A stretch of DNA of 64,000 bases from Alphaproteobacteria bacterium (GTDB lineage Bacteria; Pseudomonadota; Alphaproteobacteria; JAAXGF01). Positions 52,682 through 54,388 of the stretch are shown one piece after another. The stretch lies in assembly GCA_046582565.1 (NCBI GenBank), contig JAYGED010000241.1, positions 1,071 to 65,070 of the forward strand, written 5' to 3'. Within the stretch, counting starts at the first letter, position 1; every line of letters starts with the position of its first letter. A program made the position numbers and the translations under genes. The notes beneath the pieces were generated by a model. It worked only from the letters and a program-made list of their open reading frames with translations, ran no database searches and had not been told where the DNA came from.

Positions 52682-52808
52682 TTCCCTCGCCCACGAATTT
52701 GTGATTTGGCATGGAATTTCAATAGCCTATTATGTTTTCAGGGAGCGGCGCCCTGCGGGGCGCTCCATGGGAGGGGGACTTTTTCCATTTAACTTACGGA
52801 AACAACCC

Positions 52809-53234
52809 ATGAAATCCATAGTTGGAACTATTTTCGGGGCGATGCTCACGCTCGCCCTGGGCGCCGGTACGGCAGCCGTCGAACGGGTCACTGTCACCGG
52901 CGAAGTCATCGATACCTGGTGCTATCTGTCCGAGATCATGTTCCCCCTGGGCACGGCCCATCATCAATGCGCCATCTGGTGCGCCGCCGGCGGCATTCCC
53001 GTGGGACTCCTCGATGAAGATGAGCGGGTCTATATCATCCTCTCCATCGAGAACGACAGCGACAACGTCGCCAACCCGACGATGCTGGAAATCCAGAGCC
53101 ACCAGGTGACCGTTGAAGGCGAGGTCTTTGAGCGCGACGGCATCACCTATCTGACCATCGACAAGCTGGTCAACGACGAGGGTGTCGTCAATCGCACCGC
53201 CGACGCATACGGCATTCAGCCGTTCGGGGAGTAG
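52809..53234 (+). CDS. secreted hypothetical protein with CxnCx3C motif (paralog 1)
   Basis: Signal peptide; VTVTGEVIDTWCYLSEIMFPLGTAHHQCAIWCAAGGIPVGLLDE; homologous to following gene. Confidence 0.5.
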   Translation: MKSIVGTIFGAMLTLALGAGTAAVERVTVTGEVIDTWCYLSEIMFPLGTAHHQCAIWCAAGGIPVGLLDEDERVYIILSIENDSDNVANPTMLEIQSHQVTVEGEVFERDGITYLTIDKLVNDEGVVNRTADAYGIQPFGE

Positions 53235-53238
53235 GGCC

Positions 53239-53772
53239 ATGAAAAAATTATTACTCACAGCATTGATCGCGGCTCTGTTCACCCTGCCGAGCACCGCCGA
53301 CGCGGCGCAAGGGTGGGGCTTGATCAACGAAGAAATTGTGCGCTTCGACGCCAAGGTCGTCGATGTGCTTTGCGAGTTGACCGGCAACTGCCCGGATAAT
53401 TGCGGCGGCGGAAAACGGCAGCTCGGCCTGATCGACGCCTCGGGCAAGCTTATACCGGTGTTCAAGAATGCCGTGGCCTTCGCTGGGGGCGTCGCCGAGC
53501 TGATCGATTTTTGCGGCAAGACGGTGACCGCCGACGGCTTGTTTACCACCAACCGCGAAACCACCATCTTCGCGCTTCAGTTCATCCGTGAGGCGCCCGA
53601 TGGGAAATGGCGCAAGGCCAACCGCTTCCTCAATAGATGGGCCGAAACCAATGGCGTTGCCGTCAACAGCAACATGGCGAAATCCTGGTTTCGCAATGAT
53701 CCGCGCGTCAAGGCGCTGATCGCCGCGCAAGGAAAGATCGGGCTCGGACCCGGTGTGCTGCCGGTGGAGTGA
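53239..53772 (+). CDS. secreted hypothetical protein with Cx5Cx3C motif (paralog 2)
   Basis: Signal peptide MKKLLLTALIAALFTLPSTADA; KVVDVLCELTGNCPDNCGGGKRQLGLIDASG aligns with paralog 1 (V.G.V.D..C.L...C...C..GG..GL.D); GGGGAG RBS; 4-bp gap to paralog 1. Confidence 0.5.
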   Translation: MKKLLLTALIAALFTLPSTADAAQGWGLINEEIVRFDAKVVDVLCELTGNCPDNCGGGKRQLGLIDASGKLIPVFKNAVAFAGGVAELIDFCGKTVTADGLFTTNRETTIFALQFIREAPDGKWRKANRFLNRWAETNGVAVNSNMAKSWFRNDPRVKALIAAQGKIGLGPGVLPVE

Positions 53773-53777
53773 GTGCA

Positions 53778-54388
53778 ATGAAACCGCTGGTCCGTCTGTT
53801 CGGGCTGGCGATCCTTCTCGCCCTGGCCGCGCCGACGGCCCTGGCTCACGATACGAGCCAGGGACATGGTTCGGGCATCGCTGCCGTATCGCGGGGCGAT
53901 GATATTCCCTTCGCCCTCGGCGGCCCCTGGTCCTTGATCGACCACACTGGTCAACCACGGACGCGCGAGGATTTTTGCAGGCAATACAGGATCATCTATT
54001 TCGGCTACACGAGCTGCCCCTATAGCTGTTCGACGGCGGCGGCCAATATCGCCACCGTGCTCGATGAGCTGGCCGATGGCGGTGATGTTATGGGCGCCCT
54101 CTACATCACCATCGACCCGACATTTGATACCCCGGAACGGCTCGCCGATTTCGTCCCGCGCATCCATCCGCGCATGCTCGGCCTGACCGGCGCGGTCGCC
54201 GAGATCGAGCGGCTGCAGAAGAGCTTTCAGGTTCATGCCCAGGAAGCCGCCGACAAGGGGGGCACCAGCGATTGTTCGACCATCAGCCCCTGGCGTTCCT
54301 GATGGGACCTGAAGGCGATATCCTGACCCTGTTCCCGCCGATTCTGCCGCCTTTCGAGATCGCCAGGATCGTCCGCGGCTATCTTTGA
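53778..54388 (+). pseudogene. senC: SCO1/SenC copper chaperone gene with -1 frameshift in G6 homopolymer (54257-54262)
   Basis: Signal peptide, thioredoxin-like CxxxC (FGYTSCPYSC); after AQEAADKGG the conserved C-terminus (..RLFDHQPLAFLMGPEGDILTLFPP..RGYL*) continues in the +1 frame; inserting one G restores a full-length 203-aa Sco protein ending at 54388. Confidence 0.65.

Follow-up and report, generated by a model that had tools for sequence, protein, structure and literature searches.

The locus raises the question of what two small exported proteins, encoded directly upstream of a SCO1/SenC gene, do in the cell envelope. In the 64,000-nucleotide stretch of DNA analyzed here (the window), the gene P1 occupies positions 52809-53234 of the plus strand (ATG to TAG, 141 aa) and P2, encoding a divergent paralogue, occupies positions 53239-53772 of the same strand (ATG to TGA, 177 aa), with an intergenic gap of 4 bp. 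Both products are secreted. The first-pass annotation had described two small signal-peptide proteins encoded 4 bp apart upstream of SenC, and this arrangement was found. Its statement that the P2 stop overlaps the senC start region holds for the GTG at 53769 but not for the other candidate start, the ATG at 53778, which lies 5 bp after the stop. From sequence comparisons and structure models, we tentatively favor the view that P1 and P2, a conserved pair, would bind a soft metal in the periplasm, most likely Cu(I), and work with SCO.

Both N-termini display one or two Lys residues, a hydrophobic stretch of 12-15 residues and a small-x-small site. In P1, a Sec-type signal peptide was read from the sequence at about residues 1-24 (52809-52880, plus strand), and the AlphaFold model placed a helix at residues 5-17 with low confidence. 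Since the signal peptides are of the Sec type, any cofactor would be acquired in the periplasm. Lipoprotein, Tat-exported or haem c identities were rejected for both proteins, as no lipobox Cys, twin-Arg, CxxCH or related motif was present. A promoter-like site TTGGCA-16-TATTAT (52706-52733, plus strand) falls in the 127-nt gap between a TauE-family gene and P1; it is a weak candidate, with 10 of 12 matches and about 0.9 such sites expected by chance in the stretch. A regulatory hairpin in the P1 leader was not significant (z = -1.36), and an Rfam search of the region returned nothing.

The two proteins had been said to align clearly with each other. Their paralogy was supported, although the clarity was not: BLASTP yielded 23% identity over 64 residues (E 0.035), whereas hhalign of the P1-family against the P2-family alignment gave a probability of 90% (E 1.6e-6, 106 columns) and paired the P2 motif residues with C38, C54 and C58 of P1. 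A profile built from distant family members only matched P1 at 8.7e-31 and P2 at 3.6e-4, and the P2 profile matched distant family members at 5e-8. At the sequence level, the homology of P1 and P2 is visible with profiles only, the pairwise similarity being weak.

P1 is a typical member of an Asp/Cys3/His OB-fold superfamily of about 1,776 clusters at 50% identity, with the signature D-x2-C...H-x2-C-x3-C; P2, for which the profile support is moderate, probably belongs to it too. C38, C54 and C58 (P1 numbering) are invariant across the superfamily, and the conservation of D35 and H51 reaches 90% or more. The pattern C-x(9-16)-H-x2-C-x3-C was present in 230 of 265 sequences. Conservation of the cysteines among homologues had been named as a test of the metal-handling idea, and they were invariant down to about 26% identity (26-30%). 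Exactly three Cys were counted in 174 of the 194 full-length members; being odd, this number is at variance with structural disulfides. P1 has all of the superfamily features, namely the signal peptide, TGEV[IV]D-x2-C, H-x2-C-x3-C, and G-x-P-x-G followed by the barrel; its C-terminal YGIQPFGE tail is clade-specific. Based on conservation, its motif D35-x2-C38 ... H51-x2-C54-x3-C58 (52911-52982, plus strand) is the proposed metal site. Invariant Trp-Cys pairs also occur in the P1 clade, and a Trp-Cys motif is reported to stabilize Cu(I) (ref 317 of PMC7558416). P2 keeps the D-x2-C and C-x3-C of the superfamily within the motif D42-x2-C45-x5-C51-x3-C55 (53362-53403, plus strand), which is invariant among P2 relatives. 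Compared with P1, it lacks the motif His, its loop is 10 residues shorter, and it has an invariant fourth Cys, Cys92 (53512-53514, plus strand), located directly before strand 4 and aligning near Q96/H98 of P1.

The family had been considered unrecognized, and our searches agreed. Pfam and NCBIfam models gave only noise for P1 and P2, and neither single sequences nor a profile had a meaningful match in the PDB. The Pfam models CusF_Ec (PF11604), PCuAC (PF04314/DUF461) and CopC (PF04234) did not match P1 or P2 at E values up to 1, and no Pfam match of YHS/TRASH (PF04945 and relatives) with the motif region was obtained in any member. Seven of 34 distant members matched Pfam DUF5818 below threshold (best 23.6 bits versus 27); these matches cover the C-terminal half of the barrel only, and P1 and P2 gave no match. 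Some homologues bear the JGI name 'type 1 fimbria pilin', which was rejected because the sole PDB-profile pilin match lay within the first 45 or so positions, at the signal-peptide end. No description of the superfamily or of CNPC repeats was found in the literature. Judged by these searches, the superfamily is large, bacterial and previously undescribed, and it merits a domain definition and a structure even if its function is redox.

AlphaFold predicted a five-stranded OB-fold barrel in which strands 1 and 2 are separated by a helical hairpin that bears the cysteines. This inserted hairpin contains the conserved residues of P1. The same barrel was predicted for P2 (pLDDT 74.2), where it contains no His and no Met, and the P2 C-terminus forms a helical extension of about 60 aa that is not in P1. 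The remark of the first-pass annotation that this is not a CusF fold can be kept for the sequences, which have no similarity, but not for the fold class, since the predicted OB barrel is like that of CusF. Assignment to an unrelated structural family with no linkage to sco had been named as an outcome contradicting the proposal; an OB fold was predicted, yet the sco linkage is conserved in other genomes.

The collections searched contained at least 1,455 relatives of P1 and at least 436 of P2, and a P1 relative was present in 229 species genomes. Among 80 sampled loci, P2 directly followed P1 in 78 of 79 evaluable ones, and SCO directly followed P2 in 58 of 76, about a quarter being without an adjacent SCO. 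The median gaps in the P1-P2-SCO loci were estimated at about 3 nt. This order persisted in a relative with P1 and P2 only 39-43% identical to those of the window, and the other window neighbors of P1-P2-SCO were not conserved across loci. Recurrent neighbors in relatives were MsrP, which followed SCO in at least 11 loci, an OmpR-type two-component system, an ECF sigma factor with an NrsF-like anti-sigma, Dps and TlpA-like reductases; a cytochrome c was encoded directly upstream of P1 in six or seven loci. According to PMC9302797, MsrP repairs oxidized periplasmic copper chaperones. The linked two-component system could not be classified as a specific heavy-metal type, its scores being far below the CusRS/CopRS cut-offs. 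In the sampled loci, cox, cco, nos and copA genes were not recurrent near the pair, and the suggested link to copper delivery for cytochrome oxidase found no support, as no evidence tied the pair to oxidase genes. A hidden PCuAC nearby was rejected, since no ORF with the PCuAC motif was detected in the 80 loci or in the window. The recurrent neighbors are at least as compatible with periplasmic copper or oxidant stress as with oxidase assembly.

The SCO gene of the window is itself interrupted. Its N-terminal part (frame 0, 174 aa; 53778-54302, plus strand) has a signal peptide and matched PF02630 SCO1-SenC (E 1e-31, 110.1 bits, cut-off 22.8), so SenC was correctly placed after P2; however, it is not intact to 54388, because frame 0 ends at 54302. 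The frameshift site AAG GGG GGC (54255-54263, plus strand) includes a G6 run (54257-54262), and the C-terminal part follows in the -1 frame (42 codons; 54263-54388, plus strand). The CxxxC motif (residues 80-84, 54015-54029) is in frame 0 and the conserved copper-ligand His (FDH, 54281-54283) is in the -1 frame only, after the G6 run; the triad of CxxxC and distal His is absent from any single polypeptide of the window SCO. The frameshift sequence was identical in four independent metagenome assemblies (L081-L084). The SCOs of relatives are in one frame throughout, a repaired SCO of 202 aa aligned with homologues across the junction, and CxxxC and the copper-ligand His were kept in 60 of 60 linked SCOs. 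Programmed -1 frameshifting was considered. Formally, G GGG GGC conforms to the X XXY YYZ heptamer, but downstream structure is lacking (z = 0.57) and the Y triplet departs from the usual A or U. A mutational origin of the frameshift is more likely. With the adjoining SCO frameshifted, the pair would either function in its absence or rely on another SCO gene that lies beyond the 64-kb window.

The contexts of distant superfamily members came from seven annotated loci and 80 metagenome loci, the latter sought by a degenerate DNA pattern scan and many of them too short to show neighbors, so that the sample is small. Three of the seven annotated members were directly upstream of an OEP-CusB/CzcB-CusA/CzcA operon. 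In the only pump open to this check, Met occupies the sites equivalent to CusA M573 and M623, and the HME-RND adaptors scored equally as CusB and CzcB. Three of the seven were directly after a ResA/TlpA-like reductase, one of them (L095) with CcdA, MerTP-like and CopZ-N-like genes nearby. A TlpA-like fusion protein was encoded directly downstream in 12 of the 80 metagenome loci, and CcdA/DsbD was among the thioredoxin-linked partners. One distant member (P0305) is fused to a separate, C-terminal YHS domain, several possess His-rich tails, and a plasmid-borne member has a CopD-family neighbor; plasmid searches gave one weak match for P1 (Rhizobium binae) and none for P0466. Many distant members adjoin cytochromes c or P460, with a cytochrome P460 10 nt upstream in L222 and P460-domain fusions in FGE-type loci. 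The Cus-type pump, the MerTP/CopZ-like genes, the YHS fusion, the His-rich tails and CopD favor the metal-handling idea.

The fixed Cys3 (plus His) motif and the usual adjacency to SCO suggest that P1 and P2 are most likely copper-handling proteins of the cell envelope, and from them we infer metal binding, the identity of the metal, a P1-P2 complex and transfer to SCO. After Sec export, P1 and P2 would each fold into a five-stranded OB-type barrel, and the two-helix hairpin would present a thiolate-rich site, composed of Asp35/Cys38/His51/Cys54/Cys58 in P1 and of Asp42/Cys45/Cys51/Cys55 plus Cys92 in P2. The pair, probably as a heterodimer, would capture Cu(I) in the oxidizing periplasm. Ligand swapping would then move the metal between the pair and the CxxxC/His site of SCO, the thioredoxin-fold protein encoded with it, and SCO could also keep the cysteines of P1 and P2 reduced. 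The role of the pair might be that of PCuAC, which elsewhere passes copper to SCO, or of CusF, which passes it to an efflux pump; the pair would deliver or buffer the metal, probably when copper or oxidants stress the cell. Several points argue against copper. A Cys3His/Asp site suits Zn(II), Cd(II) or Hg(II) no less than Cu(I), and P2, with four Cys and without the His, could form two disulfides. Thioredoxin-fold partners and MsrP, Dps, ECF-sigma/NrsF and two-component neighbors would be just as likely if the function were in thiol redox or oxidant stress, and copper handling does not explain the cytochrome c and P460 neighbors of distant members. Moreover, the window SCO is broken while P1 and P2 are intact, about one locus in four has no adjacent SCO, sequence similarity to CusF, PCuAC, CopC and YHS is absent, and cox, cco, nos and copA do not recur.

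The main rival is a purely thiol-redox role, which we consider unlikely. P1 and P2 would then be thiol-disulfide redox proteins without metal, such as relays, sensors or HOCl/peroxide scavengers, with reactive Cys cycled by the adjoining thioredoxin-fold protein, SCO here and TlpA/ResA/DsbD-like proteins elsewhere. A thioredoxin-fold protein is indeed the most consistent partner across the superfamily (SCO, ResA/TlpA-like reductases, the TlpA-like fusion and CcdA/DsbD, at the frequencies given above), and the stress-type neighbors MsrP, Dps, the OmpR-type two-component system and the ECF sigma with its NrsF-like anti-sigma are consistent with such a role. However, it explains neither the conserved His and Asp beside the cysteines nor the Cus-type RND, MerTP/CopZ-like, CopD and YHS links and the His-rich tails. 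The copper-ligand His kept by the linked SCOs would be needless for a pure reductase, and the predicted fold is an OB barrel, which to our knowledge is no redox-catalyst fold.

Binding of another metal, or of structural zinc, seems distinctly unlikely. The Asp/Cys3/His site could hold Zn(II), Cd or Hg, either in a chaperone for divalent or thiophilic metals or as a stabilizer of the hairpin while the OB barrel binds another ligand. In its favor are the Cys3His and Cys4 ligand sets, both classic for zinc, the equal CusB and CzcB scores of the adaptors, the MerTP-like neighbor in L095, and the Cd(II) observed in ribosomal protein L24e at a TRASH site of related appearance (PMC4626032). On the other hand, the linked SCO is a copper protein that keeps its triad in all 60 cases, the one checkable pump has the CusA methionines, and the YHS and CopD neighbors are copper-associated. 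The invariant Trp-Cys pairs of the P1 clade also point to copper, as this motif is reported to stabilize Cu(I).

A role in electron transfer or as a haem accessory, with a Cys/His redox centre or in the maturation or partnering of cytochromes c and P460, appears very improbable. It would account for the cytochromes c upstream of P1 and beside distant members, for the P460 gene in L222 and the P460-domain fusions, and for the ResA/CcdA-type neighbors, which are also cytochrome c maturation components. P1 and P2 are, however, without CxxCH or a related haem-attachment motif, Sec export speaks against Fe-S clusters, we know of no precedent for an H-x2-C-x3-C haem site, and the RND, MerTP and YHS links are not explained. 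That P1 and P2 are spurious or decaying genes with a fortuitous SCO adjacency, for which the frameshifted SCO of the window organism might speak, has practically no likelihood and is refuted by two intact ORFs, 58-83% identity to sampled relatives, P1 relatives encoded in 229 species genomes and the conserved gene order.

Periplasmic copper trafficking, as known so far, depends on a few chaperone families, CusF, PCuAC, Sco, CopC and CueP among them. If P1 and P2 handle copper, they would add a new thiolate-based player and account for the supply of SCO where a linked PCuAC is missing. A broader and more doubtful proposal is that the superfamily forms a third, thiolate-based class of bacterial periplasmic Cu(I) metallochaperones beside the Met/His-based CusF and PCuAC. 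Its members would carry an Asp/Cys3/His site, similar to that of TRASH domains, on an OB barrel, and dedicated thioredoxin-fold partners would keep this site reduced. In Rhodospirillales and Kiloniellales without linked PCuAC, the P1-P2 heterodimer would then be the missing copper donor of SCO; in Ignavibacteria, Deltaproteobacteria and other phyla, single-copy relatives would supply Cus-type pumps. The family is widespread and secreted, and its genes recur beside those of SCO, TlpA-like reductases and Cus-type pumps. The prediction lends itself to direct testing, as the proteins are small and soluble and there are several cultured carriers: Ferruginivarius sediminum, whose SCO is intact, Pelagibius marinus, Aestuariispira insulae and Magnetospirillum sulfuroxidans.

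Among known systems, CusF/SilF, which serves the CusCFBA efflux system as its periplasmic Cu(I)/Ag(I) chaperone, resembles P1 and P2 in their predicted five-stranded OB barrel. The metal site of CusF, Met2-His with a Trp cap, is on the barrel, whereas the proposed Asp/Cys3/His ligands of P1 and P2 are on the hairpin between strands 1 and 2. The family profiles scored about 0 bits against E. coli CusF. CusF is encoded in a CusCBA-type operon; P1 and P2 are linked to SCO and no pump, and pump linkage was seen in three of seven distant members. CusF has been reviewed as an OB-fold Cu(I) chaperone (PMC7558416). The YgiW/BOF OB-fold stress proteins and the C-terminal domain of NlpE (CutF) are similar to P1 and P2 at the fold level only, being without sequence or Pfam relationship and without the Cys-bearing hairpin.

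PCuAC (PcuC/PccA) is a soluble periplasmic partner, commonly linked to sco, that exchanges copper with Sco, to which it donates the metal (PMC7558416), and this is one of the two roles proposed for P1-P2. The P1-P2-SCO loci contain no gene bearing the PCuAC motif, which leaves that role vacant there. PCuAC differs in fold, and its H(M)x10Mx21HxM motif is absent from P1 and P2, which gave no match to its Pfam model; its chemistry is of the Met/His type, and that of P1 and P2 would be thiolate-based.

YHS/TRASH domains have a similar ligand pattern, (D/C)-x2-C-x(n)-C-x3-C, in which a helix carries the last two Cys (PMC4626032). The order and the x2 and x3 spacings agree, but the resemblance is at the motif level only; their middle spacer is about 22 residues (19-22), compared with 15 in P1, 5 in P2 and 12-19 in the superfamily. 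The superfamily has an extra conserved His and its motif is embedded in an OB barrel; its members are exported, whereas YHS/TRASH domains are described as cytosolic (PMC4626032).

The TlpA-ScoI/CoxB pathway of Bradyrhizobium likewise combines a periplasmic thioredoxin-like protein with a Cys-based copper-binding client, TlpA reducing the copper-binding cysteines (PMC7558416), and distant members are similarly encoded beside TlpA/ResA-like and CcdA genes. The difference is that the putative client here would be an OB-fold protein, and that in the P1-P2 clade the thioredoxin-fold neighbor is SCO itself.

Two small secreted Cys-motif proteins, P1 (52809-53234, 141 aa) and P2 (53239-53772, 177 aa), are encoded on the forward strand directly upstream of a SCO1/SenC gene (SCO). 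Both carry Sec-type signal peptides, and inspection of the two sequences found no lipobox cysteine, twin-arginine motif or CxxCH. The tight packing described in the first-pass annotation was confirmed, the P1 to P2 gap being 4 bp. The overlap it described between the P2 stop and the SCO start exists if SCO begins at GTG 53769, but not if it begins at ATG 53778. P1 and P2 indeed lie outside recognised families, with zero Pfam or NCBIfam matches, and searching solved-structure sequences with both returned nothing. A promoter-like site was located at 52706-52733, though chance alone would yield one of this kind, and an Rfam search found nothing. The GC-rich imperfect inverted repeat in the P1 leader 3' of this site (52743-52766) was rejected as a regulatory hairpin, its folding energy resembling that of shuffled sequence (z = -1.36, not significant). 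Elsewhere within the 64-kb window neither another SCO nor a gene with the PCuAC motif nor a further paralogue of P1 or P2 was present.

The gene following P2 belongs to the SCO1-SenC family as originally read (Pfam SCO1-SenC match, 1e-31), but it is interrupted and not a single intact ORF to 54388. The frame-0 part (174 aa) ends at 54302, while the C-terminal part (54263-54388, forward strand, 42 codons), containing the conserved copper-ligand His, is in the -1 frame; the CxxxC and this His fall in different frames. The shift is located at AAG GGG GGC (54255-54263, forward strand), a G6 run, and a -1 repair yields a 202-aa protein aligning with homologues through the junction. It is not an assembly error, because four independent metagenome assemblies carry the same sequence, and three of these differed from the window by just two substitutions over the 1,580-nt region. 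No stimulatory RNA structure was found 3' of the site. Mutation is more likely than programmed frameshifting, and in this population SCO has probably become a pseudogene, with P1 and P2 still intact.

P1 and P2 had been said to align clearly. Plain pairwise similarity is weak (BLASTP, 23% identity over 64 residues, E 0.035), but their paralogy was upheld by profile-profile comparison (probability 90%, E 1.6e-6, 106 columns), which paired C38, C54 and C58 of P1 with C45, C51 and C55 of P2. Distant family members were retrieved by the P2 profile, and a profile built from these members alone matched P1 (8.7e-31) and P2 (3.6e-4). These sequence comparisons indicate that P1 and P2 are homologous and that P2 is probably a divergent superfamily member; its loop is 10 residues shorter than in P1, the His is absent and an extra invariant fourth Cys (C92) is present.

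The P1 profile, run against the full set of 1.84 billion cluster representatives, detected 1,776 clusters (E up to 1e-3). The distant members, the named ones from Ignavibacteria, Deltaproteobacteria and Eisenbacteria, are mostly secreted, 120-135 aa long and all annotated as hypothetical. Conservation of the cysteines was borne out, since C38, C54, C58 and one Gly were the sole invariant residues among P1, P2 and 32 distant members, with G31, E32, D35, G48, H51, A55, G62 and G111 at least 90% conserved in the same set. The family signature reads TGEV[IV]D-x2-C-Y ... G-x-x-H-x-x-C-A-x-x-C-A-K-x-G-x-P; with a DNA pattern covering part of it, 80 metagenome loci were retrieved, all 80 encoding a member. 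The arrangement C-x(9-16)-H-x2-C-x3-C was present in 230 of 265 collected sequences, and 174 of 194 full-length sequences had exactly three cysteines in the mature protein. Because this Cys count is odd and invariant, with conserved His and Asp adjacent, the Cys3/His/Asp cluster looks like a binding or reactive centre rather than structural disulfides. Below-threshold matches to Pfam DUF5818 (7 of 34 distant members, C-terminal barrel half only) are uninformative on function.

Collection-limited searches detected 1,455 relatives of P1 and 436 of P2, all unnamed proteins, the named sources being mostly Kiloniellales, Rhodospirillales and other alphaproteobacterial MAGs. The window P1 is identical to a protein from an uncultured alphaproteobacterium. 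With each species represented by one genome, a scan detected a P1 relative in 229 genomes; among the cultured organisms with one are Pelagibius marinus, Ferruginivarius sediminum, Aestuariispira insulae, Paramagnetospirillum kuznetsovii and Magnetospirillum sulfuroxidans. P2 directly followed P1 in 78 of 80 retrieved loci, the exceptions being one contig end and one genuine case. The predicted sco linkage was also conserved: SCO followed P2 in 58 of the 76 loci with enough downstream sequence, with an estimated median gap of about 3 nt at both junctions, and the CxxxC and His were kept in all 60 linked SCOs. The triad persists in a relative with only 39% (P1) and 43% (P2) identity to the window proteins, while the window flanks (TauE-family membrane protein, pyruvate kinase, aldehyde dehydrogenase, M23 peptidase) are not conserved. 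None of the 80 loci contained a PCuAC-motif ORF. Since SCO is frameshifted here and about a quarter of the loci have no adjacent SCO, the pair has no strict need of this copy.

Other neighbours of the pair differed between clades. In one clade an OmpR-type regulator, a short-loop histidine kinase and a small secreted CNPC-repeat protein precede P1 and P2, with SCO usually next and then MsrP (394 bits, cut-off 207). The locus of F. sediminum (L055, 2008-7650) is ordered Dps, regulator, kinase, CNPC protein, P1, P2, SCO and MsrP; the periplasmic loop of its kinase is just about 30 residues, and no MsrQ was evident after MsrP. In another clade (L011, L013, L018, L022, L065, L072) a periplasmic FGE-sulfatase-domain protein is encoded directly upstream, with YeeE/YedE and DUF302 downstream. 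A further clade has a cytochrome c gene directly upstream of P1. Magnetospirillum-type loci encode an ECF sigma factor, an NrsF-like anti-sigma factor and DUF6969, with an HD-GYP protein downstream instead of SCO; in M. sulfuroxidans (L061, 1433-7859) a multihaem cytochrome c also lies 5' of P1-P2, the anti-sigma factor is of the DUF1109 type and the HD-GYP protein is sensor-like. No cox, cco or nos genes recurred near P1-P2 in the relatives. The suggested link to cytochrome oxidase was not borne out by gene neighbourhood, the recurrent neighbours pointing to envelope stress, redox and metal physiology rather than oxidase clusters.

Small secreted proteins consisting almost wholly of CNPC/CNPCNPCAAKK repeats were encoded directly upstream of P1 in 12-13 relatives (L055 4463-4891; L019, L030, L033, L036, L051, L054, L057, L059, L063, L064, L069) and somewhere in 20 of the 80 loci. 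They had no Pfam or NCBIfam match, no literature description was found, and none is encoded in the window. They may serve as a cysteine-rich buffer for metal in the periplasm or as a modification substrate. Longer proteins in seven loci (L011, L013, L018, L022, L023, L025, L065) have CNPC repeats at the N-terminus and, C-terminally, a cytochrome-P460-like domain with a C-x-x-C-H close to the end; they lie upstream of P1, in most on the opposite strand. FGE is a copper-dependent enzyme; CNPC resembles its target motif CxPxR but lacks the Arg.

Contexts of distant members were compared in seven annotated and 80 metagenome loci. Three of the seven members lie directly upstream of an OEP, a CusB/CzcB-like adaptor and a CusA/CzcA-family pump (TIGR00914, 761 bits, above cut-off), and the sole pump long enough for the check has Met at the CusA M573 and M623 positions. 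Three others lie 30-70 nt downstream of a ResA/TlpA-like thiol reductase, and in one of these three CcdA and genes resembling MerTP and the CopZ N-terminus are present too; the seventh adjoins cytochrome c. Among the metagenome loci, the gene directly downstream encodes in 12 cases a ~450-aa protein whose C-terminal domain is TlpA-like, cytochrome-c-like neighbours occur in about 20, and 4-5 have an OEP and an adaptor with a heavy-metal-binding domain. Eleven soil loci (L113, L114, L125, L129, L140, L143, L153, L156, L167, L170, L177) have a single-copy member with a DUF442-like protein (HCxxGxR) upstream, and in most the ~450-aa protein with its thioredoxin domain (WASWCDPC) downstream. A YHS domain is fused to one member, and His-rich tails occur in several. 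On Rhizobium binae plasmid p2 (NZ_CP071606.1; L223, 5539-6309) a 256-aa membrane-anchored member carries GEICDGKC...HKACANLC in its C-terminal domain, between genes for a Rieske 2Fe-2S protein and a CopD-family protein. In L222 the P1-like gene has no P2 partner and is separated by 10 nt from a plain cytochrome P460 gene upstream of it.

The idea that P1 and P2 handle periplasmic metal survives its own refutation tests, among them Cys conservation and sco linkage, and still stands as a candidate. On the reading with the most support, at slightly less than even odds, they may be thiolate-based periplasmic soft-metal binders, most likely for Cu(I), working with a thioredoxin-fold partner. P1 and P2, probably as a heterodimer, would bind Cu(I) and exchange it with SCO, or SCO would keep them reduced. 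Trp-Cys pairs are invariant in the P1 clade, and Cys/Trp motifs are reported as Cu(I)-stabilising in a source cited for this point (reference 317 of PMC7558416). A purely thiol-redox or oxidant-stress function would fit the thioredoxin-fold partners and stress neighbours, but is unlikely given the pump, MerTP, YHS and CopD links and the conserved His and Asp. Binding of Zn, Cd or Hg, or a structural zinc site, would also be compatible with the sequence and is somewhat less probable again. The cytochrome neighbours suggest a part in electron transfer or another cytochrome-related role, but this is very improbable, as P1 and P2 contain no haem or Fe-S motif and Sec export conflicts with it.

P1 and P2 belong to an undescribed protein family, but the system, handling of metal or thiols in the periplasm around SCO, is of a known kind and not a new one. 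The relevance of the family to specialists in bacterial copper homeostasis is moderate to high, given its size, its sharp definition and the ease of testing it. Copper is donated to Sco by PCuAC, TlpA reduces copper-binding cysteines so that copper uptake is possible, and CusCBA is fed by CusF, a periplasmic Cu(I) chaperone with an OB fold (PMC7558416); P1 and P2 would fill the role held elsewhere by PCuAC or CusF. By motif, no CusF fold had been recognised in the first-pass annotation. The AlphaFold models (pLDDT 79.8 for P1, 74.2 for P2; b1, two helices, b2, b3, short helix, b4, b5) predict an OB-type barrel, the fold class of CusF, with the cysteines on a helical hairpin inserted between strands 1 and 2; the putative site is elsewhere than in CusF, however, and CusF has no sequence relationship to the superfamily. 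The L055 layout resembles the hprRS-msrPQ logic of E. coli with extra genes inserted, and a passage of PMC9302797 describes repair of oxidised periplasmic copper chaperones by MsrPQ during copper stress. At the motif level only, the D-x2-C...C-x3-C of the superfamily mirrors the YHS/TRASH metal site D178/C181/C204/C208 (PMC4626032).
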